A stretch of 64,000 bases of DNA, taken from sequence record MT446412.1, one strand, 5' to 3'. This DNA is from Escherichia virus TH41. Every line of letters begins with the position of its first letter. Position 1 is the first letter of the stretch. Under the pieces are notes generated by a model. The model was given only the letters and a program-made list of their open reading frames with translations, had not been told where the DNA came from and searched no databases. The position numbers were made by a program, and so were the translations under genes. This document shows positions 5,237 through 64,000 of this stretch, piece after piece.

Positions 5237-5312
5237 GGCCCTGTAGCTCAATTGGTTAGAGCATCCGGCTCATAACTGGCAGGTTTCCGGTTCAAGTCCG
5301 GATGGGGCCACC
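5237..5312 (+). tRNA. tRNA with CAU anticodon (Met or lysidine-modified Ile)
   Basis: Cloverleaf by hand: acceptor GGCCCTG/TGGGGCC, D-arm GCTC..GAGC, anticodon loop CTCATAA, T-arm TCCGG-TTCAAGT-CCGGA; one mismatch in anticodon stem. Confidence 0.7.
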
Positions 5313-5389
5313 CGGGGTGTAGCTCAATTGTATAGAGCAACGGTCTTCTAAACCGTAGGTTGTGGGTTAGAATCCCACCACCCCGACCA
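5313..5389 (+). tRNA. tRNA-Arg (anticodon UCU)
   Basis: Acceptor CGGGGTG/CACCCCG, anticodon stem ACGGT/ACCGT, loop CTTCTAA, T-arm GTGGG-TTAGAAT-CCCAC, encoded CCA. Confidence 0.8.
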
Positions 5390-18976: not shown

Positions 18977-19556
<580 letters not shown>

Positions 19557-19612
19557 TGTACAAGCAGATTGAAATGAGTTATGATTATCCCATCAAACAA
19601 AAGGAGATAATC

Positions 19613-20071
19613 ATGACTACTATCGATTCAAGTGTTTACATTCGCCGCAATAAACTTCGTCGCATTTTTGAAACGGAGTTCCTCAAAATTAATAATGCTA
19701 TCAACAAGGCTTGTAAAGAAGCAGGCCTTGAGGCATTCTTCATTAAGTACAGTCCACATCTGTTGGACCGTGCAATCCAACGTGAAATTGATGAACAATA
19801 TGTTTTTGACTTGTTTGGAAAAATCACACCACATGTAAAAGAAATCGTTGAATTCTTGGAGATGAAACCGCTCCCGGAAGTTGAAGCACAAATTGACCCG
19901 AATATGAACTACCGTCCACTTCGTCTGGAAATTACAGACAAGAACCTGTGGTTAGGAATGACAGTTAACCCAGCTCTTCCTGGGAAGTCTCCGACCATGT
20001 GTTGTCGTATGGCGTTTGTTAACTCTAATCGTCTGGAAGGAAAAATTAGCACAAAAGTGATTTATATCTAA
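19613..20071 (+). CDS. regB: RegB site-specific endoribonuclease
   Basis: VYIRRNKLRR.FE.EF..INN...HLLDRAIQREIDE.YVF.LF...CRMA closely matches T4 RegB; AAGGAG RBS. Confidence 0.9.
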   Translation: MTTIDSSVYIRRNKLRRIFETEFLKINNAINKACKEAGLEAFFIKYSPHLLDRAIQREIDEQYVFDLFGKITPHVKEIVEFLEMKPLPEVEAQIDPNMNYRPLRLEITDKNLWLGMTVNPALPGKSPTMCCRMAFVNSNRLEGKISTKVIYI

Positions 20072-20081
20072 TGGGGAATTC

Positions 20082-20624
20082 ATGAAAAAAGTAATCGCCA
20101 CCTTACTATTGACAGTTAGTATGTCTGCCCATAGCGTAGAGCCTACTTTCAGTAATGAACAAATGGAAAACCTCCAATATGCTTATGCGTTTGGAGAACA
20201 GTTCCAGAAAAATGGTAAGTACAAAGAAAATCCGCACCAACATAATGGTTTGGGATATATCATGGCTGGTTTAACCTGGCAGGAGAGTTCTGCTGGGATT
20301 AATACTGGATTAAATAAAGATAAGCATCATGCATATGGTATATTCCAAAATTATCTTCCAACCGTGCGCGAACGTGTGAAACAGGTTGGGTGGACAATGA
20401 CAGATAAAGAAATAATCAAGATGATAAGCAAGAGAGAGAACAGTGCACGCTGGGCTTACATTGAGCTTTCATACTGGTTGAATATTCATAAGGGGGATAT
20501 AAGGAAAACACTATCATCATATAACGCAGGATGGAATGTGAAAGCTGGTAATACGTATGCTTCACAGGTCCTAGAAAAAGCTAACTACTTAAAATCACGA
20601 GGCCTATTAAAAACGGTGGATTAA
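20082..20624 (+). CDS. secreted lytic-transglycosylase-like protein
   Basis: Signal peptide; SLT-like WQESS...AYGIFQ motif. Confidence 0.5.
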   Translation: MKKVIATLLLTVSMSAHSVEPTFSNEQMENLQYAYAFGEQFQKNGKYKENPHQHNGLGYIMAGLTWQESSAGINTGLNKDKHHAYGIFQNYLPTVRERVKQVGWTMTDKEIIKMISKRENSARWAYIELSYWLNIHKGDIRKTLSSYNAGWNVKAGNTYASQVLEKANYLKSRGLLKTVD

Positions 20625-20626
20625 AA

Positions 20627-20986
20627 ATGGTAAGAGTTATAACTTTAGCCATAGGGTTAGTATTCAGCATGGGAGGAATAGCTTCAGTACAGAGCGACGA
20701 CAACAACAGCATCATAGAATATGCAACGAGGACGGCTAAAGATTATTGCGCCGCAAGCAATGTGGATTGTATAATCCAGTTCAGCGCCAAGCTCACCGCG
20801 GCATATAAAGATGGTCAAAATGATGTTGAACATACACTTTTGAAAAAGAATGTATTATCCAACAAATATGAAAAGAAATTATTTGAAATGGATTGCATTC
20901 TGTCAAGTGCAAAATATAAGGCGGCCTGCACCAGTATGGTTGACAGGTTAGTGGATTCATATAATAGAGGATTGAACTCTAAATGA
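20627..20986 (+). CDS. secreted hypothetical protein
   Basis: N-terminal signal-like hydrophobic segment; 119 aa. Confidence 0.45.
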   Translation: MVRVITLAIGLVFSMGGIASVQSDDNNSIIEYATRTAKDYCAASNVDCIIQFSAKLTAAYKDGQNDVEHTLLKKNVLSNKYEKKLFEMDCILSSAKYKAACTSMVDRLVDSYNRGLNSK

Positions 20987-21462
20987 TTACCCAGTATATT
21001 AAGGGCGATATCGTCGCCCTCTTTCTTCAAGGCAATATTATTGCACATGGTTGTAACTGCTTTCACACAATGGGTTCTGGTGTAGCTGGACAGTTGGCGA
21101 AGGCTTATCCAAAAGTTTTAGAAATAGATAAAACCACTACTGAATATGGTTCTCGTGATAAATTAGGCGATATGTCTATTGTTTTTAAACATAAGCCGAC
21201 AGGTTTTGGCATGTGCTATAACTTGTATACACAATACGAGCCAGGCCCTAATCTTGATTATGGCGCTTTAGTAAATTGTATGATAGAATTAAATCTACAA
21301 GCAGAAACCCTTTTGTTTAAACCGGTAATTTATATTCCACGTATTGGTTGTGGTATTGCAGGTGGAGATTGGGAAAAGGTTTCTAAATTAATCGACATGT
21401 TTACTCCTGATATTGATTTAATAGTGGTGGATTATGAAAGCACATTACCCACATCCGTTTGA
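20983..21462 (+). CDS. macro-domain protein (ADP-ribose binding/processing)
   Basis: GDIV...NIIAHGCNCF...GSGVAGQL and ...IPRIGCGIAGGDW resemble the macro-domain Gly-rich signature. Confidence 0.5.
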   Translation: MITQYIKGDIVALFLQGNIIAHGCNCFHTMGSGVAGQLAKAYPKVLEIDKTTTEYGSRDKLGDMSIVFKHKPTGFGMCYNLYTQYEPGPNLDYGALVNCMIELNLQAETLLFKPVIYIPRIGCGIAGGDWEKVSKLIDMFTPDIDLIVVDYESTLPTSV

Positions 21463-21646
21463 CCCTAAAAACAAAGCGGAAATTATTCGACGCTGGACCG
21501 AAACTCGAGTAACCAAATGTCCTATAAAAAGTCAACACAACACTGATAAATGGTATATCGGTGAATATGTTGAATATACTTTTATAGATAAAAATAAACG
21601 TAAACAGCACGTAGAAGAATATTGCCTAAAGGTACAATGGTTATGA
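21434..21646 (+). CDS. hypothetical protein
   Basis: 70 aa overlapping upstream gene end. Confidence 0.4.
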   Translation: MKAHYPHPFDPKNKAEIIRRWTETRVTKCPIKSQHNTDKWYIGEYVEYTFIDKNKRKQHVEEYCLKVQWL

Positions 21647-21849
21647 GCCAAGCCCGAATTCTTAAAACGGCCAAATGTGAAAAATGTGAATGGCCGGTAA
21701 TCGCAGCTTTGTGCAACGATGAAATGAATTGCGAATACGATTACTGGTGGTACTGTTCTAATAAAGGATGTTCTAATCATAAGGGTGAAGGTTTTCATTC
21801 TGGTTATTGCGAACATCCTAAATTTGTGCGATATGGGGAACCGAAATGA
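21643..21849 (+). CDS. Cys-rich small protein (putative zinc-binding)
   Basis: CEKCEW...CNDEMNCEYDYWWYCSNKGCSNH...C. Confidence 0.45.
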   Translation: MSQARILKTAKCEKCEWPVIAALCNDEMNCEYDYWWYCSNKGCSNHKGEGFHSGYCEHPKFVRYGEPK

Positions 21850-22031
21850 GTTTAAGCATTAGTCAGAAAAGTAGATTATTTGAGCTTATCCATGAGCTTT
21901 TGGATGAGCATACAGAAGCAAACGCCTTTTATGATGAATACGGCCCAATAGATGCCGAACATCAGGAAGAATTTGCCAATCGATTTGATGCGAAAGAAAA
22001 CGAATTAATAGCTTATGTGAATACGCTTTAA
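21846..22031 (+). CDS. small acidic hypothetical protein
   Basis: 61 aa. Confidence 0.4.
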   Translation: MSLSISQKSRLFELIHELLDEHTEANAFYDEYGPIDAEHQEEFANRFDAKENELIAYVNTL

Positions 22032-22040
22032 GAAGGTGAT

Positions 22041-22613
22041 ATGGCGAGTTTAATTTATCATTACGCAGCAATGAATGCAGGCAAAACAGCTTCATTGCTG
22101 ACTGCAGCTTATTCCTATAAAGAGCGTGGAATGAGTGTGCTTTTGCTAAAACCTGTTATTGATAATCGGGACTCGGAAGGCGAAATTAAATCACGCATCG
22201 GTATTAGCCAGGAAGCAAACCTGGTAACGGCCGACATGAACCTGTTTGAATTCTATAAATGGGCCGAGTCTCAAAAGGATATCCATTGTGTCCTGGTCGA
22301 TGAAGCTCAATTTTTGTTACCAGAGCAAATTGACCAGTTAGCTCAAGTGGTTGATAATTACAATATCCCCGTTATGTGTTACGGGTTAAGAACAGATTTT
22401 CGGGGTCAATTATTTCCCGGTTCGGCCAGACTTCTGGCTATTTCGGATAAACTGGTTGAATTAAAGGGCGTCTGTCATTGCGGCCGGAAAGCAACCATGA
22501 CCGCTCGAGTAATCGACGGTGCTGCTGTAAAGGACGGCGAGCAAGTATTGGTCGGTGGGAATGAATCGTACGTATCTTTGTGCAGAAAACATTGGCTCGA
22601 ATTAACAAGCTGA
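22041..22613 (+). CDS. tk: thymidine kinase
   Basis: MASLIYHYAAMNAGKTASLL...VDEAQF...CHCGRKA matches T4 Tk. Confidence 0.95.
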   Translation: MASLIYHYAAMNAGKTASLLTAAYSYKERGMSVLLLKPVIDNRDSEGEIKSRIGISQEANLVTADMNLFEFYKWAESQKDIHCVLVDEAQFLLPEQIDQLAQVVDNYNIPVMCYGLRTDFRGQLFPGSARLLAISDKLVELKGVCHCGRKATMTARVIDGAAVKDGEQVLVGGNESYVSLCRKHWLELTS

Positions 22614-22620
22614 GGTTCGC

Positions 22621-22896
22621 ATGGTATACAAGGTTTGGACGTATATCTCTATTTTGATATTCCTGGTTTTGGTTTTTGTTCCTATGCAACAGGACCAGGA
22701 AAGGTATGAGCGCGAAGTCGAAATCGTTGCAAGTACCTATCACTCGTTCAACAAAGAGTGCCCCAATAAAAACGGAATAAGCCTGCAACAAGCATACTAT
22801 TTGTCAACGGTCACCAGTCCAAAACAACGGGTCTGGGTTGAACGTAATTTTGCAGGTTTATTTTCAGAGTACTGCTTTAATTTTAAACGTCTATAA
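22621..22896 (+). CDS. small membrane protein
   Basis: N-terminal TM helix; 91 aa. Confidence 0.45.
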   Translation: MVYKVWTYISILIFLVLVFVPMQQDQERYEREVEIVASTYHSFNKECPNKNGISLQQAYYLSTVTSPKQRVWVERNFAGLFSEYCFNFKRL

Positions 22897-22899
22897 ATA
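22892..22899 (+). promoter_or_regulatory. late promoter TATAAATA (MotA-box TGCTTTA lies 12 nt upstream)
   Basis: Exact TATAAATA upstream of rI; TGCTTTAA at 22874-22881. Confidence 0.5.
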
Positions 22900-22968
22900 C
22901 AGTTACTAACTAGTATTCCGCTATGTTAAGGCTGCAAAGCGTAATCATGACCAACAATAGGAGTCCTT

Positions 22969-23262
22969 ATGGACCTTATTCGAGGACTTTCATTAAGTCT
23001 AATAATCCTGGGCTGTTTAGGTCCAAATCTGTCCTCTGCAACAGATGGGAAGTTTACCCAATATGCAGATAGTGCGATGAAGATTTATTCGCAATTCAAA
23101 GAACCAAGCGTGCACCAATCCGAACAGTTCTGGGCGTTTATCAAGACTGAATGGAACAACAAAAGCCAATGCGAAACTGAAATTACCTGCAAAAGCGATG
23201 GTAAAGCTGCGGCGAGAGAGTACGCTAAATTAATGAAGGTAAAATTGGAAGATGAAATTTGA
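22969..23262 (+). CDS. rI: lysis inhibition regulator RI (antiholin)
   Basis: 97 aa with N-terminal signal-anchor; SEQFWAFIK and AREYAKLMKVKLEDE match T4 RI; adjacent to tk. Confidence 0.75.
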   Translation: MDLIRGLSLSLIILGCLGPNLSSATDGKFTQYADSAMKIYSQFKEPSVHQSEQFWAFIKTEWNNKSQCETEITCKSDGKAAAREYAKLMKVKLEDEI

Positions 23263-48407: not shown

Positions 48408-51122
48408 ATGCAAGAATTTTATTTAACTATCGAACAAATCGGTGACAACCTACTCGAACGATATATTGACAAGAATGGTCATGAACGTGTTCGTGAAATC
48501 CCTTATGCTCCATGCTTGTTTATGCACGCCCGCGAAGACCAAGCTGCAAAGTATACAGACATCTATAATAAAGGTTGTGTGAAAAAAGAATTCGATTCCA
48601 TGCGTGATGCATCCCAGTGGATGAAGCGAATGAATGACATGGGTCTCGAAGCTATGGGTATGGACGACTTTAAACTCGCATACTTGTCCGACCGTTACCC
48701 ACACGAAATCAAATATGATTCAAGTAAAATCCGTGTTGCTAACTTCGATATCGAGGTGACATCTCCTGATGGGTTCCCTGAACCGTCTGAAGCACGTCAC
48801 CCTATTGACGCCCTGACGCACTATGATTCGGTAGACGATAAATTCTATGTCTTTGACCTTTTGGGCTCACCATACGCCACTGTGGAGCAATGGTCTATTG
48901 ATATTGCTGCTAAGCTGCAGGAAGACGGTGGTGATGAAGTCCCGGAAGAAATCCTGGAAAAAATTGTTTATATGGCTTTCGATTCAGAAGAAGAAATGCT
49001 CCAGCAGTATTTGGTATTCTGGAACGAGAAAACTCCGGTTATGTTAACTGGTTGGAACATCGAGAAGTTTGATATTCCATATATCTACAACCGCCTTAAA
49101 AATGTATTTGGTGAAGCTACAGCAAAACGTCTGAGCCCACATCGTCGTACAAAAGTTAAGGTCATTAACAACGGCTTTGGCGAAGAACAAGAAATCATTC
49201 AGATTCTGGGTATCTCTGTTCTGGATTATCTGGACCTGTATAAAAAGTTCAGCTTCACAAACCAACCGTCTTATTCGTTGGATTATGTTGCGGAATCTGA
49301 ACTGGGTGTTGGTAAACTCCCGTATGATGGCCCGATTTCTAAACTGCGCGAATCAAATCACCAGCGGTATATTTCTTATAACATCATCGACGTTTATCGT
49401 GTTGTGCAGATTGACCGTAAGCGACAGTTTATTAACCTGAGTCAGTCAATGGGTTATTACGCAAAAATGCAGATTCAGTCTGTATTCAGCCCAATCAAAA
49501 CTTGGGATGCGATTATCTTTAACAGCTTGAAGACTCAAAACAAAGTTATTCCGGAAACCAAATCGCATGTTCGCCAATCGTTCCCTGGTGCATTTGTTAA
49601 GGAACCTATTCCGAACGCATACAAATATGTAATGAGCTGTGACTTAACATCTCTGTATCCGAGCATCATCCGACAGATTAACATCAGTCCAGAAACGATT
49701 GCCGGGTCATTTGCGCCAGCCCAGATGTATGAATACATCGCAGGAACTGCTGACCGTCCATCTGATACATTTAGTTGTGCTCCAAATGGTATGATGTATT
49801 TTAAAGATGTTGCGGGTATTATTCCGACAGAAGTCACCAAGGTGTTTAATCAGCGTAAAGAGCACAAAGGCTATATGCTTGCGGCTCAACGTAATGGTGA
49901 ACTGATTAAGGAAGCTCTGCGTAATCCAGGAACTGGCACAACCGAACCAGAAGTTGATTATCGTCATGACTTTGATGACAATATGAAAACGGCCCTGCAT
50001 GGTCTGAATCAAACAGTCCTAAATGGTATGCTGTACAAAGCGCAGATGGAAGAAGTTGCAGGCATGACCGCACAGATTAACCGTAAACTGCTTATCAACA
50101 GTTGTTATGGCGCTCTGGGTAATATCTGGTTCCGTTACTTTGACCTGCGAAATGCAACCGCGATTACATCTTTCGGACAACTTGCACTGCAGTGGATTGA
50201 GCGTAAAGTTAACGAATACTTCGATAGTGTTTGTGGTACAAGCGGTGAAACTTATGTGTTCTATGGCGATACTGACTCCATTTATATCCAGTGCGATAAC
50301 CTGATTAAAAAGGTTGGTGGCGAATCTAAATTCCGCGATACAAACCACCTGGTTGACTTCATGGACAAGTTTGCGAAAGACCGTCTGGAACCGGCAATCG
50401 ATAAAGCTTTCCGTGAGCTGGCTGAATACATGAACAACAAACAGCACCTTATGTTTATGGACCGTGAGGCGATTGCATGTCCTCCGCTGGGTTCGAAGGG
50501 TGTGGGTGGATTCTGGACGGCGAAGAAGCGTTATGCGTTGAACGTGTACGATATGGAAGGCACACGTTATGCTGTTCCAAAATTGAAAATCATGGGTCTG
50601 GAAACTCAAAAGTCGAGTACTCCAAAGGCATGTCAGAAAGCTCTGAAAGAATGCATCCGCCGTATGCTGCAAGAAGGTGAAGAATCTCTGCAGACATACT
50701 TCAAGGAATTCAATAAGGAATTTAATGAGCTTAACTACATGACCATCGCAGGGGTATCATCGGTTAACAACATCCAGAAATATAATGAAGGTGGTTTCCC
50801 TGGATTTAAGTGCCCGGCTCATATCAAAGGTGTGCTTGCATATATGCGTGCAACTAAAGGTCTGAAGACTGTTCCGCAAATCATGGAAGGGGAAAAGGTG
50901 TATGTACTTCCTCTTAAAGTCGGCAACCCATTTGGTGAAACCGTGATTGCATGGCCATCAGGGATTGAACTCCCGATTGAAATTCGTGACCAAGTCTTGC
51001 AGTGGATGGACTACAACACACTGTTCCAGAAGACTTTTGTCAAACCGTTAACAGGTTTCTCTGAAGCTGCAAAGGTTGATTACGAAAAGAAAGCAACTCT
51101 TTTTGATATGTTTGACTTTTAA
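48408..51122 (+). CDS. 43: DNA polymerase gp43 (family B)
   Basis: 904 aa; exo motifs (FDIE, YNIIDV), polymerase motifs (DLTSLYPSII, YGDTDS) and long colinear similarity to T4 gp43. Confidence 0.97.
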   Translation: MQEFYLTIEQIGDNLLERYIDKNGHERVREIPYAPCLFMHAREDQAAKYTDIYNKGCVKKEFDSMRDASQWMKRMNDMGLEAMGMDDFKLAYLSDRYPHEIKYDSSKIRVANFDIEVTSPDGFPEPSEARHPIDALTHYDSVDDKFYVFDLLGSPYATVEQWSIDIAAKLQEDGGDEVPEEILEKIVYMAFDSEEEMLQQYLVFWNEKTPVMLTGWNIEKFDIPYIYNRLKNVFGEATAKRLSPHRRTKVKVINNGFGEEQEIIQILGISVLDYLDLYKKFSFTNQPSYSLDYVAESELGVGKLPYDGPISKLRESNHQRYISYNIIDVYRVVQIDRKRQFINLSQSMGYYAKMQIQSVFSPIKTWDAIIFNSLKTQNKVIPETKSHVRQSFPGAFVKEPIPNAYKYVMSCDLTSLYPSIIRQINISPETIAGSFAPAQMYEYIAGTADRPSDTFSCAPNGMMYFKDVAGIIPTEVTKVFNQRKEHKGYMLAAQRNGELIKEALRNPGTGTTEPEVDYRHDFDDNMKTALHGLNQTVLNGMLYKAQMEEVAGMTAQINRKLLINSCYGALGNIWFRYFDLRNATAITSFGQLALQWIERKVNEYFDSVCGTSGETYVFYGDTDSIYIQCDNLIKKVGGESKFRDTNHLVDFMDKFAKDRLEPAIDKAFRELAEYMNNKQHLMFMDREAIACPPLGSKGVGGFWTAKKRYALNVYDMEGTRYAVPKLKIMGLETQKSSTPKACQKALKECIRRMLQEGEESLQTYFKEFNKEFNELNYMTIAGVSSVNNIQKYNEGGFPGFKCPAHIKGVLAYMRATKGLKTVPQIMEGEKVYVLPLKVGNPFGETVIAWPSGIELPIEIRDQVLQWMDYNTLFQKTFVKPLTGFSEAAKVDYEKKATLFDMFDF

Positions 51123-51124
51123 GT

Positions 51125-51154
51125 GTTTACAACGGCAATGGATTGCCGTATGAT
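51125..51154 (+). promoter_or_regulatory. early promoter
   Basis: GTTTAC-18 nt-TATGAT with inverted repeat CGGCAAT/ATTGCCG in spacer. Confidence 0.5.
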
Positions 51155-51191
51155 TACCCCATCAACTGATGAATAACTTGAGGATATTAAA

Positions 51192-51434
51192 ATGGAAACA
51201 TTAATTGCGGGTACTGTTGTTCTTGGTGCAGGTTCTTTCTTCCTGGCTGCACTGGCATATTTTCTGCCGTGGATTATCGCGCTACTGCGTGGAACCAAAA
51301 GTAATTGCGGAATCTTCTTTGTTAACCTCCTGTTAGGTTGGACAATGGTCGGATGGTTTATTGCATTTATCTGGGCACTCGTTGCTGAACGTAAATCAAA
51401 CGCACAAGTAATTATCATCAAGGAATCAAAATGA
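51192..51434 (+). CDS. small two-TM membrane protein (Imm-like by position)
   Basis: 80 aa, two TM helices; adjacent to gene 43 as T4 imm. Confidence 0.45.
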   Translation: METLIAGTVVLGAGSFFLAALAYFLPWIIALLRGTKSNCGIFFVNLLLGWTMVGWFIAFIWALVAERKSNAQVIIIKESK

Positions 51435-51582
51435 AGATAATTACAATTATTGTATTGATTGCATTTTTTAGTATGTCAATCTATTGGGCAATAATGACTC
51501 CACATATGATTCCAACTTTAATTTTGGGTTGGGTATTTTTGGGGCTCCAAGCCCGCTATGAATGTTTTAATTAGGAAGCAAA

Positions 51583-52086
51583 ATGAAAAAGTTAGCTATC
51601 GCAGCTGTTATGCTGCTATCTGGTTGTGCTTACCAGGGTGATGTTGTTAATGCCAACGAGATTGGTAAAGCGCGAATTGCTGCAGACCGTCAGGTGCATA
51701 ATGGTTCCTTTGATTTCAAAGGTGGTACTGGACTTATCTACAAACGCGACAACAATCAATGTGGAAACAACTGCGCGAAATATGCTCAACAAGAAATTGA
51801 GTACAAACGCGAGCAAGCTGCGAAGCATGACGAAATCATTGCCAAGCTGGAAGCAGAAACCAAGCGACAAAATGACCTGGACACTGTTAACCAGATTTCA
51901 CAGGTCTGCATGTCATACATCAATATGCAGATAAACATCATGCGCGCAGAAGCTTATCAGGCAGCGGAGATGGGTTCTCCAAAAGCTAATGAGTACCGCG
52001 ATATGTATCAGCGTTCTGCTCAAAACCGTCTGAGCTATATTAATAAATGTGTAGCTAAAGAGAAAGCACGCCAAGGTATTAACTGA
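51583..52086 (+). CDS. lipoprotein
   Basis: Signal peptide with lipobox LLSGC; 167 aa. Confidence 0.55.
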   Translation: MKKLAIAAVMLLSGCAYQGDVVNANEIGKARIAADRQVHNGSFDFKGGTGLIYKRDNNQCGNNCAKYAQQEIEYKREQAAKHDEIIAKLEAETKRQNDLDTVNQISQVCMSYINMQINIMRAEAYQAAEMGSPKANEYRDMYQRSAQNRLSYINKCVAKEKARQGIN

Positions 52087-52277
52087 TGTTATTATTACTT
52101 CTGATTGTTGTAACAGTAATTGGTTTGCTGCTATTAGAAAAGCGTAATAAGCATTTGGCTGAAGAAAACTGGAAATGTGGTAACGTTTACTGAGTTAATT
52201 GCTCTAAAAATACAGTGATATAATTATCCTATCTTAAACCTGTGAGAAAAATATAATGGTGCCTATGGAAAAAATGA

Positions 52278-53456
52278 ATGTCTATTGCAGATTTGAAATC
52301 CCGTTTGATTAAAGCTTCTACATCCAAAATGACTGCGACTCTTACCAAGTCCAAGTTCTTTAATGATAAAGATGTAGTTCGTACAAAAATCCCGATGCTG
52401 AACATTGCAATCAGCGGTGCACTAGATGGTGGTATGCAGTCAGGTTTGACTATTTTTGCTGGTCCGTCAAAACACTTTAAATCCAATATGGGTTTAACGA
52501 TGGTCTCTGCATATATGAACAAATACCCCGATGCAATCTGTTTGTTCTATGATTCAGAATTTGGTATCACAGAAGCATATCTTCGTGCAATGAAAGTTGA
52601 CCCGGAACGTGTTATCCATACACCAATCCAGTCGGTTGAACAATTGAAAGTTGATATGGTTAACCAGCTTGAAGCAATTGAGCGTGGTGAAAAAGTCATT
52701 ATCTTTATTGACTCAATCGGTAACATGGCGTCGAAAAAAGAAACAGAAGATGCGATGAACGAAAAAGTTGTTGGCGATATGACTCGTGCTAAATCCCTGA
52801 AATCTCTGTTCCGTATTGTTACCCCATATTTTAGTATCAAGGATATTCCTTGTGTCGCGGTTAACCATACAATTGAGACGATTGAGATGTACAGCAAAAC
52901 CGTTATGACCGGTGGCACAGGTGTTATGTATTCCGCAGACACCGTATTCATTATCGGCAAACGCCAGATTAAAGAAACTGGTAAAGAACTTGAAGGCTTC
53001 CAATTTGTTCTGAACGCCGAAAAATCTCGTATGGTCAAAGAGAAAAGTAAATTCTTCATTGATGTAAAATTCGATGGGGGTATTGACCCGTATTCTGGCC
53101 TGCTTGATATGGCAATGGAAATCGGATTTGTGGTGAAACCAAAAGTTGGTTGGTATAACCGTGAATATCTTGATGTTGAGACCGGCGAAATGGTCCGCGA
53201 AGAAAAATCATGGCGCGCAAAAGATACTAACTGCACCGAATTCTGGGGTCCGCTGTTCAAGCACGAACCTTTCCGTGATGCAATTAAACGCCATTACCAA
53301 CTGGGTGCAATCGATAGCAATGCTGTTGTTGATGCTGAAGTTGATGCGCTTATTGCCTCCAAGGTTGAAAAATACTCTGCTCCTGAAGGTAAGACAAAAC
53401 CGTCCGCTGCAGATATCGAAAACGATTTAGATATGATGGAAGACCTTGATGAATGA
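52278..53456 (+). CDS. uvsX: recombinase UvsX (RecA-like)
   Basis: LKSRLIKASTSK.TA.LT.SKFFN.KDVVRTKIPM.NIA.SG...GGMQSGL.I.AGPSK.FKSN.GLTMVS near-identical to T4 UvsX. Confidence 0.97.
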   Translation: MSIADLKSRLIKASTSKMTATLTKSKFFNDKDVVRTKIPMLNIAISGALDGGMQSGLTIFAGPSKHFKSNMGLTMVSAYMNKYPDAICLFYDSEFGITEAYLRAMKVDPERVIHTPIQSVEQLKVDMVNQLEAIERGEKVIIFIDSIGNMASKKETEDAMNEKVVGDMTRAKSLKSLFRIVTPYFSIKDIPCVAVNHTIETIEMYSKTVMTGGTGVMYSADTVFIIGKRQIKETGKELEGFQFVLNAEKSRMVKEKSKFFIDVKFDGGIDPYSGLLDMAMEIGFVVKPKVGWYNREYLDVETGEMVREEKSWRAKDTNCTEFWGPLFKHEPFRDAIKRHYQLGAIDSNAVVDAEVDALIASKVEKYSAPEGKTKPSAADIENDLDMMEDLDE

Positions 53457-57659: not shown

Positions 57660-58019
57660 ATGAGTTATTATAATTTTCTGAATTTTGAACTGGCGAGCAA
57701 TAATGATGGTAATGCTCATTATGAATTTCGTGAGCCACGGTTTAATCAAGCGATTGGTTATATTATCGTCAAAGATGATGTTATCATAAAGGCTCGCTCA
57801 TTTATGGTAATGAATGGACCTTATGAAGATACTCGCGGCTATCCATTTGATAAAAAGAATGTGCGCGATTGTGCAGCATGGATAACCGGAAACCCCGAAA
57901 TTGGGGTCATGATATCTACTGAAGCGAATGACATTCTGGAAGGGGTTTGGGCCAAAGCTCAAGAATCGTCTATTGCTATTGACGACCAGATTTTTAATGC
58001 CTTCATGAAACGAGGTTAA
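57660..58019 (+). CDS. hypothetical protein (DDQIFNAFMKR tail)
   Basis: 119 aa; same C-terminal tail. Confidence 0.45.
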   Translation: MSYYNFLNFELASNNDGNAHYEFREPRFNQAIGYIIVKDDVIIKARSFMVMNGPYEDTRGYPFDKKNVRDCAAWITGNPEIGVMISTEANDILEGVWAKAQESSIAIDDQIFNAFMKRG

Positions 58020-63121: not shown

Positions 63122-63682
63122 ATGAACATCATCAAATCTGATACCGAACCCAACCAGTTAAAATTTAATGAAATGGAGATAGCTTCATTATTTGAATGCC
63201 GCGCATCAAAGGTTGATAAGACCTTACATTCAAACATCAACTCAATCATCAAGTCAAGGTTGTCTATACCTGATACAGTCTTGTATCGTGGGGTAACCCA
63301 GCAAGAGATTGATTTGTTAGATGAAGCAAAAGAATCAATGCAACCTTTTGAATTTGGAAGGATAACCTCCTTTACAGAAGACTATGGTATTGCCAGGGAT
63401 TTTGCTGCAATGGAATATGTGTCAAGGACTATCATCAGATTGAATCATACAAAAGCTTTTTGTTATCATGATGCGATGCGCAAAATCGCGCTTGACGTTC
63501 CACTGGAATTCTTCAATACAGCCTCTGGTTCCGAACAGGCAGCAACGTTAAGGCGTGAAGAATACATGGACATGATTGATTCTGAGCTTGAATGGTTTGT
63601 TCCAGTTGACCAGAAATTCGTGATAGTTGATGCTGGATTTGTTGATGATTATTATGTTCTTGACTGTGTACAAGAGCAATAA
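63122..63682 (+). CDS. ADP-ribosyltransferase (ModA/ModB-like)
   Basis: R-S-E type motifs: LYRGV, ITSFTED, SELEWFVP; position matches T4 mod locus. Confidence 0.55.
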   Translation: MNIIKSDTEPNQLKFNEMEIASLFECRASKVDKTLHSNINSIIKSRLSIPDTVLYRGVTQQEIDLLDEAKESMQPFEFGRITSFTEDYGIARDFAAMEYVSRTIIRLNHTKAFCYHDAMRKIALDVPLEFFNTASGSEQAATLRREEYMDMIDSELEWFVPVDQKFVIVDAGFVDDYYVLDCVQEQ

Positions 63683-63726
63683 GACACGTTAAGATGTTCC
63701 TATCAACTACTGATGAGGATAATAAA

Positions 63727-64000
63727 ATGCTGTACACTGATGACGTTTTGAATGGAATTATTGACATTGCCGCTTCTAGTGAGTCTTTTCGTAACCAATG
63801 TCAAGCGGAGATTGATGCTCTTTATACAGATAATGAACAATCAGTACTCTGGCAGTGTATGGAAAATAAACCCGACCTGATTCAAGAAGACTTAACCAGG
63901 ATTATCCGCAACAATCTGAATACTGCACCACCTGCGGCATTGTTCCGTGGTATATCAAAGAAAACTATGGAATACCTGGAAGATTTCAGATATGTTGGTG
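63727..64000 (+). CDS. ADP-ribosyltransferase paralog (partial, runs off window end)
   Basis: LFRGIS Arg motif; ORF open to end of window. Confidence 0.4.
   Translation, partial: MLYTDDVLNGIIDIAASSESFRNQCQAEIDALYTDNEQSVLWQCMENKPDLIQEDLTRIIRNNLNTAPPAALFRGISKKTMEYLEDFRYVG

Follow-up and report, generated by a model that had tools for sequence, protein, structure and literature searches.

Phage T4 and a small number of other macrodomain proteins offer the closest described systems for the gene considered here. When a T4 transposon library was challenged with DarTG2 (HIDEN-SEQ), only tk.4 scored as significant; a clean tk.4 knockout sensitises T4 to DarTG2, so that the gene is conditionally essential, needed only on DarTG2 hosts, and it was renamed adfM, for anti-DarT factor macrodomain (bioRxiv 10.1101/2025.11.20.689424, a November 2025 preprint). 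PhiKZ gp104, also named AdfM, strips DarT2 ADP-ribose from DNA in vitro, and an N23A mutant of it has been made (PMC13309987). The cellular protein SCO6735 removes thymidine-linked ADP-ribose from DNA by hydrolysis and also protects against the toxicity of DarT (PMC9411070). In Vibrio phage Gary, the macrodomain encoded between Adps and Namat, termed Adpp, is an ADP-ribose (ADPR)-1''-phosphate phosphatase that lets the NARP1 pathway beat the RES-domain defence aRES (bioRxiv 10.64898/2026.01.28.702374, a January 2026 preprint). We compare with these systems a macrodomain gene of Escherichia virus TH41, found in a stretch of 64,000 nucleotides from sequence record MT446412.1; the whole of that stretch is called the window below.

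The open reading frame (ORF) opens with ATG and encodes 159 aa, and is the syntenic ortholog of T4 tk.4, lying between vs and tk.3:

20983..21462, + strand: tk.4/adfM ortholog, a stand-alone macrodomain (ORF, Pfam Macro match, identity to T4 Tk.4, structural model; coordinates include the stop codon).

The function is already published for T4 tk.4/adfM, and so the role is a known one. For the window protein we infer the same activity and role by analogy with its relatives: its main task is probably the hydrolytic removal of DarT2-installed ADP-ribose from thymidines of single-stranded phage DNA. For the window protein itself, the analysis established the domain, its predicted fold, the orthology to T4 tk.4, the gene order around it and the make-up of the active site.

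The window comes from a T4-like phage; at window positions 19500-23000, Escherichia phage P479 and Shigella phage SP18 (Straboviridae, Gaprivervirus) match it with 98.2-98.4% identity. The protein is 98.7% identical to SP18 tk.4 and 56% identical to T4 Tk.4 over 155 aa, in an ungapped, full-length alignment (E=1e-68). Genes in the window run regB, vs.1, vs, tk.4 ortholog, tk.3, a small zinc-binding ORF, tk.2 and tk, and the order regB-vs.1-vs-tk.4-tk.3-tk.2-tk is common to T4, SP18 and the window. Since 56% is typical of the identities to T4 of the neighbouring genes (vs 45%, tk.2 49%, regB 59%, vs.1 65%, tk 71%, tk.3 71%), nothing points to a switch of function, and unusual divergence of tk.4 as the mark of an arms race was ruled out, the value falling within the 45-71% range of its neighbours.

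A first-pass annotation of the window had called a macro domain here from three motifs, all of which are present: NIIAHGCNCF at residues 18-27, GSGVAGQL at residues 31-38 and IPRIGCGIAGGDW at residues 118-130. With the Pfam Macro profile PF01661 the protein reaches 33 bits (gathering cut-off 22; E=6.2e-8), the match spanning profile positions 2-117 of 118, and PHROG 335 ('phosphatase') matches with E=9e-71. Motif content and family membership are, by these sequence comparisons, far beyond chance. Near-identical genes in GenBank carry the annotations tk.4, phosphatase or macro-domain protein. By tblastn, relatives occur in 2756 of 50,697 phage records (5.4%; 2762 places), nearly always as a single copy per phage genome, and an exhaustive HMMER scan returned 5993 representatives of 50%-identity clusters at E<=1e-3, of which 1541 reach E<=1e-10.

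Two alignments were used to place the protein among macrodomains: A1, of 103 homologs, from which the AlphaFold2 model was also built, and A2, a nine-sequence MAFFT alignment that includes TARG1 and DarG. The model (predicted local distance difference test, pLDDT, 94.2; predicted template modelling score 0.89) has the three-layer alpha/beta/alpha macro fold. Its best Foldseek matches in the PDB are TARG1, BT1257, Poa1p and the DarG macrodomains of Thermus aquaticus and Mycobacterium tuberculosis (E 2.6e-10 to 1e-7, template modelling score, TM, 0.65-0.82), which outrank viral and MacroD-type macrodomains; the top 50 matches are all macrodomains or designed enzymes that rank among them, at probability 1.00. 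Sequence searches agree, both with the single sequence (BT1257 6e-11, Poa1p 1.7e-9, SCO6735 3.6e-7, M. tuberculosis DarG 5.5e-5, TARG1 2e-3) and with the family profile (BT1257 4e-19, SCO6735 3e-16, TARG1 3e-16, Poa1p 1.5e-14, DarG 1e-11 to 1e-9), and together with the fold ranking they place the protein in the ALC1-like (TARG1/DarG/SCO6735/Poa1p) class. The macro-domain call is thus correct, by a Pfam score above cut-off and by predicted fold, and the structure prediction that had been proposed as a check gave a model whose Foldseek matches to DarG macrodomains and to TARG1 are compatible with a macro domain.

Four segments carry the conserved motifs:

21046..21063, + strand: HGCNCF motif, residues 22-27 (invariance in A1, alignment A2).
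21073..21090, + strand: first Gly-rich loop GSGVAG, residues 31-36 (conservation in A1 and A2); in macrodomains this loop binds the ADP-ribose diphosphate.
21220..21234, + strand: NLYTQ motif, residues 80-84 (HMMER profile alignments, A2 column).
21337..21372, + strand: second Gly-rich, phosphate-binding loop PRIGCGIAGGDW, residues 119-130 (conservation in A1 and A2).

The motifs HGCNCF, NLYTQ and P-x-IG-C/A-GIAGGDW are nearly constant in the family. In A1, thirteen positions are unchanged in 103/103 homologs (H22, G23, N25, C26, G33, A35, D49, N80, Y82, Q84, G88, P119 and W130), and G122, G124, G127 and G128 are kept in 90% or more of them; in A2, none of the nine sequences, TARG1 and DarG included, departs from G31 and G33. 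Asn25 is the conserved macrodomain Asn and aligns in A2 with N27 of SCO6735 and N23 of PhiKZ AdfM, while Gly23 aligns with SCO6735 Val25. The two conserved Gly-rich loops and Asn25 predict that the protein binds ADP-ribose.

The column that holds the catalytic residue separates two types. It is Gln in the window protein (Q84), T4 Tk.4, Gary Adpp, SCO6735 (Q85) and BT1257, and Lys in TARG1 (K84), both DarG macrodomains (K80 in DarG) and PhiKZ gp104 (K78). This assignment follows the HMMER alignments to TARG1 and SCO6735, which are free of gaps, and the MAFFT alignment A2; an hhalign comparison of the family profile with PhiKZ gp104, which set the PTK lysine opposite Tyr82 by a two-residue shift in a low-confidence segment, was rejected. 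The window protein therefore has the SCO6735-type arrangement of a Gln at the TARG1 K84/DarG K80 position held by the conserved Asn (Q84/N25), and Ala126 sits at the second catalytic residue of TARG1, D125. Going by this column, the window protein and T4 AdfM are Gln-type and SCO6735-like, and PhiKZ AdfM is Lys-type and DarG-like, so that one name covers different macrodomain lineages. The same alignments put T4-type AdfM and Adpp in what appears to be one Gln-type family with a common active site. T4-type AdfM does not look like a captured DarG antitoxin; it is an SCO6735-like macrodomain, kin to the phosphatase Adpp.

In SCO6735, Gln85 is essential (Q85A) and is locked by Asn27; mutation of Q85 or N27 abolishes hydrolysis of thymidine-ADP-ribose DNA, and the proton is proposed to come from a water that the Val25 backbone holds (PMC9411070). 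Carried over to the window protein, the sequence of events would be as follows. The tk.4 ortholog would be expressed from a longer transcription unit, from regB to tk; once host DarTG2 is triggered, its toxin DarT2 places ADP-ribose on thymidines of single-stranded phage DNA and blocks replication; and the stand-alone macrodomain would hold the ADP-ribose by its two Gly-rich loops and hydrolyse the C1''-N3(thymine) bond, releasing free ADP-ribose and leaving replicable DNA. Asn25 would position Gln84, Gln84 would orient the distal ribose, and a backbone-held water would be the putative proton donor. The suggestion, made in the first-pass annotation, that a phage macrodomain could reverse host-imposed ADP-ribosylation of the DarT kind finds support in the genetics of T4 tk.4/adfM, which reaches the window protein through a 56%-identical ortholog. 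A real anti-defence function was here foreseen from raw sequence alone.

T4 Tk.4 is the nearest characterised relative. It has the same HGCNCF and NLYTQ motifs and is likewise stand-alone, at about 155 aa. It differs in the second Gly loop, which reads GCGIAGGDW in the window protein, as in the family consensus, and GAGIGKGNW in T4; the window protein is also four residues longer at its C-terminus, and its gene overlaps tk.3 by 29 nt. Protection against DarTG2 was demonstrated in T4 only. The sequence-closest solved structures are those of SCO6735 (PDB 5E3B) and BT1257 (2AFC/2FG1), which share with the window protein the catalytic-site Gln, the conserved Asn and a loop of the form GCGLAGG-W; these are, however, cellular proteins, of Streptomyces coelicolor and Bacteroides, with 26-29% identity to it. 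In SCO6735 the mobile loop is longer and bears Lys89 and Lys94, Val stands in place of Gly23, and the protein is basic, with an isoelectric point (pI) of 9.5 against 5.05. Human TARG1/OARD1 (4J5R/4J5S) is the best Foldseek match (E 2.6e-10, TM 0.72-0.81) and aligns without gaps across the catalytic segment, but its dyad K84/D125 is replaced by Q84/A126.

Several points weigh against DNA repair as the main role. The support from T4 AdfM is a preprint phenotype, and enzymatic ADP-ribose removal by AdfM is only 'likely' in its authors' words (bioRxiv 10.1101/2025.11.20.689424). The Aravind group predicted that phage macrodomains mostly target small ADP-ribose derivatives. Gary Adpp, 38% identical and with the same motifs, is a proven ADPR-1''-phosphate phosphatase, and the family may therefore have more than one kind of substrate. 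The long mobile loop whose Lys89 and Lys94 SCO6735 uses for DNA binding has no counterpart here, the loop after Gln84 being of eight residues (YEPGPNLD) with no Lys; and the protein is acidic (pI 5.05). PhiKZ AdfM is likewise acidic though it does act on DNA, and net charge was discarded as a clue to DNA versus small-molecule substrates.

The kinship with Adpp allows a broader reading, in which the protein is a dual-specificity C1''-hydrolase that both strips DarT2 ADP-ribose from DNA and dephosphorylates ADPR-1''-phosphate. Membership of AdfM and Adpp in one Gln-type family makes such dual specificity possible, and we hold it as a tentative idea, on the doubtful side of even; a phosphatase side activity of the window protein is itself possible, given the 38% identity and the Adpp motifs. 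If dual specificity is true, a single protein of 159 aa would weaken two classes of defence that are unrelated to each other, DarTG2 and aRES, and phages that carry Adpp might resist DarTG2 for free. More generally, with AdfM and Adpp linked, a small phage enzyme might act against the DNA ADP-ribosylation of DarTG2 as well as against RES-type phosphorolysis of NAD+ by aRES. The two preprints that name AdfM of T4 and Adpp do not connect them; a term search of the aRES preprint (bioRxiv 10.64898/2026.01.28.702374) found no occurrence of 'tk.4' or AdfM.

That the main job would instead be that of an Adpp/Poa1p-like phosphatase acting on small molecules is unlikely. Such an enzyme would produce ADPR from the ADPR-1''-phosphate that RES-type NAD+ phosphorylases, aRES for example, release, or would dispose of by-products of RNA repair. 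Gary Adpp (KNV71_gp137, L005:2501-2977), a phage anti-defence enzyme too, shows 38% identity with the window protein and 35% with T4 Tk.4, belongs to the same PHROG 335 and has the same Asn/Gln/Gly-loop constellation, with the H-x-CNCF, N-x-Y-x-Q and GCG-AGGDW motifs common to both. Purified Adpp turns ADPR-1P into ADPR, and NARP1-AP needs Adpp against aRES (bioRxiv 10.64898/2026.01.28.702374). A phosphatase is also what T4 Tk.4 has long suggested to annotators, through its 'A1pp phosphatase motif', and aRES is found in E. coli, Klebsiella and Enterobacter. Yeast Poa1p (6LFQ-6LFU), a eukaryotic ADP-ribose-1''-phosphate phosphatase that acts on a by-product of tRNA splicing, is a top fold match with the H-x-CNC motif in common, and the N-terminal half of the window protein resembles it at E=1.7e-9; the sequences align well only at both protein ends.

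What separates the window gene from Adpp is its setting. The demonstrated substrate of Adpp is a small molecule, and Adpp lies between Adps and Namat, unlike the window gene, which is neither within nor beside an Adps-Namat (NARP1) operon. Searches by tblastn with Gary Adps and Namat covered the window, positions 1-50000 and 51014-157000 of SP18 and two T4 stretches, and found neither (best E-value 0.25). Adpp acts only within the Adps-Adpp-Namat operon (bioRxiv 10.64898/2026.01.28.702374), and outside NARP1 the production of ADPR does not rebuild NAD+. With no NARP1 genes found and a phosphatase alone unable to rebuild NAD+, the Adpp role is therefore unlikely as the main one. The protein is also nearer to T4 AdfM (56%) than to Adpp (38%), and its loop after the Gln is of 8 residues against the 15 of Gary Adpp. 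By our own arithmetic, macrodomain genes associated with NARP1 occur in ~0.6% of phages (15% of 859 NARP1 pathways in 20,185 genomes; bioRxiv 10.64898/2026.01.28.702374), against the 5.4% of phage records that hold a member of the family.

The published NARP1-AP operon arrangement was also seen in annotated genomes. In Vibrio phages Pontus (L003:3129-6192) and Gary (L005:1629-4659), a macrodomain homolog 38-41% identical to the window protein lies directly between the Adps and Namat genes, which are annotated as 'ribose-phosphate pyrophosphokinase' and 'nicotinamide phosphoribosyl transferase', respectively.

Another account keeps DarT2 as the opponent and dispenses with catalysis, the protein neutralising DarT2 mainly by binding or sequestering it, in mimicry of an antitoxin, or serving only as an ADP-ribose reader. 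Catalytically dead SCO6735 Q85A does still inhibit DarT in vitro, beyond DarG or TARG1 mutants (PMC9411070), and the ICP1 factor AdfB acts by binding DarT. We consider this account quite improbable, as the residues for SCO6735 catalysis are all invariant in the family, which argues for selection on catalysis, and the window protein has no DarG-like C-terminal DarT-binding domain: it stops at residue 159, and its gene is flanked by vs and tk.3 rather than by darT. The DarG macrodomains (T. aquaticus 5M31/5M3E, M. tuberculosis 5M3I) and PhiKZ AdfM have the same fold as the window model and the same reaction as is proposed here, removal of thymidine ADP-ribose, but carry a Lys-type FPTK site, with Gln84 of the window protein in the column of that lysine. 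The NCBIfam DarG model NF048014 gives the window protein 28.5 bits against a cut-off of 250, and the PADLOC DarG model gives PhiKZ gp104 132.9 bits, T4 Tk.4 36 and the window protein 27.7 (macro part only). DarG membership was ruled out by score, missing C-terminal domain and missing catalytic Lys, and to judge from its sequence the protein does not look like a captured DarG antitoxin. AdfB was dismissed as a relative, being a DarT binder and not a macrodomain.

Fusions of Gln-type macrodomains to DarG-like C-terminal domains were also looked for, and the candidates P0249, P0141 and P0221 were rejected because they match DarG models in the macro part only. The bacterial homologs examined are stand-alone or have unrelated extensions; one from Pelagimonas (P0094) is stand-alone, with no darT nearby. 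Metagenomic P0249 (321 aa) and P0141 (350 aa) have ~170 residues C-terminal to the macrodomain, and metagenomic P0221 (546 aa) has ~400 residues N-terminal to it, in neither case with a Pfam or PADLOC match.

The first-pass annotation had also considered that the macrodomain might tune the phage's own ADP-ribosylation, that is, marks set by Alt, ModA and ModB (Arg-linked ADP-ribose on protein, or ModB RNAylation). Its reading of the ORFs at 63122 and 63727 as ADP-ribosyltransferases was borne out: they are ModB/ModA-like (PHROG 832, E=3e-27 and 1e-10), with 33-41% identity to T4 ModB, and SP18 has two alt genes. Tuning of these marks is nonetheless a most improbable role, for which we found no support. 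Alt, ModA and ModB make arginine N-glycosidic linkages, and T4 tk.4 scored only with DarTG2 present (bioRxiv 10.1101/2025.11.20.689424). There is no genetic link, and the tk.4 ortholog and the ModB/ModA-like genes are ~42 kb apart and not co-located. Known substrates of TARG1/DarG/SCO6735-class macrodomains are Asp/Glu esters, thymidine-ADP-ribose and phosphate-linked ADP-ribose; this class is not known to cleave Arg-ADP-ribose, which is removed by ARH1/DraG-type enzymes. We give almost no weight to a further idea, that the target is some other host ADP-ribosylation, such as RNA modified by CmdT-like toxins, or ADPR-derived nucleotide signals: macrodomains are versatile, and most of those in phages are predicted by the Aravind survey to act on small molecules, but the only genetic phenotype of the T4 ortholog is on DarTG2 (bioRxiv 10.1101/2025.11.20.689424) and no data tie the family to such systems.

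The ModB-like and ModA-like genes stand in tandem at 63122-64000 (+). In SP18, two adjacent Alt paralogs (alta, altb; 121812-125756) occur besides ModB-like and ModA-like genes, making four ADP-ribosyltransferases, and beside these the genome encodes a macrodomain (tk.4) as well as a NADAR homolog (gp30.3). The latter is the homolog of AdfN, present in this closest sequenced relative; the pair gp30.3 and tk.4 is consistent with layered anti-DarT equipment. AdfA, anti-DarT factor A, is the product of T4 gene 61.2. In the window, a 119-aa ORF at 57660-58019 (+) matches Pfam AdfA over its last 19 residues only (23 bits against a cut-off of 27), and T4 gp61.2 (208 aa) aligns to it only by its C-terminal 21 aa; with the match confined to the C-terminal end, an intact AdfA seems to be missing or replaced in the phage.

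The tk.4 ortholog overlaps both of its neighbours:

20983..20986, + strand: ATGA overlap of the vs stop codon and the tk.4 start codon (sequence, ORF table).
21434..21462, + strand: 29-nt overlap of the tk.4 3' end with the tk.3 ORF.

The ATGA overlap may reflect translational coupling within a longer transcription unit. The 29-nt overlap, with the tk.3 ORF (21434..21646, DUF7202) downstream, encodes a short C-terminal tail that has no counterpart in T4 Tk.4, and pLDDT falls below 50 at residues 157-159; in T4, the tk.4/tk.3 overlap is only 4 nt. A promoter of its own was considered and rejected: 10 sigma-70-like sites were found in 19000-23000 against 12.5 +/- 3.4 in shuffled sequence, and as these are not enriched no dedicated promoter is claimed. 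Together with the two overlaps, this places tk.4 in a longer transcription unit. A simple terminator scan flagged a GC-rich hairpin, perfect over 8 bp and with a T-rich run behind it (AGGGCGATATCGTCGCCCT CTTTCTT), at 21002-21020 (+), within the tk.4 ORF and 20 nt past its start codon; the scan total of 5 is not clearly higher than the 2.7 +/- 1.7 of shuffles.

The upstream neighbours, described in the first-pass annotation as secreted and SLT-like, are indeed Vs (20627..20986, +; hydrophobic N-terminus) and Vs.1 (20082..20624, +; signal-like N-terminus), although the SLT match of Vs.1 is weak (E=0.029, under the Pfam cut-off). Some GenBank records annotate Vs.1 as an SLT or lytic transglycosylase protein. 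Adjacency of tk.4 to Vs and Vs.1 is conserved T4 synteny and not evidence for a shared function. Both Vs.1 (MKKVIATLLLTVSMSAHS...) and Vs (MVRVITLAIGLVFSMGGIASVQS...) open with signal-peptide-like hydrophobic segments, a start that is odd for Vs, the 'valyl-tRNA synthetase modifier', if its target is the cytoplasmic synthetase.

Elsewhere in the window, the interval between gp43 DNA polymerase and uvsX (51122-52278) holds only imm and a 167-aa ORF of PHROG 1754, whereas T4 has imm, 42 (dCMP hydroxymethylase) and beta-gt there. In the SP18 annotation tables (1-157 kb), gene 42, a-gt and b-gt are all absent and alc appears as two separate ORFs; from this gene content, the lineage of the window phage and SP18 may be without glucosyl-hydroxymethylcytosine DNA. 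The window has two tRNA genes only, Met-CAT and Arg-TCT at 5237-5389 (+), and the SP18 annotation gives three for the equivalent cluster, Arg, Asn and Met.

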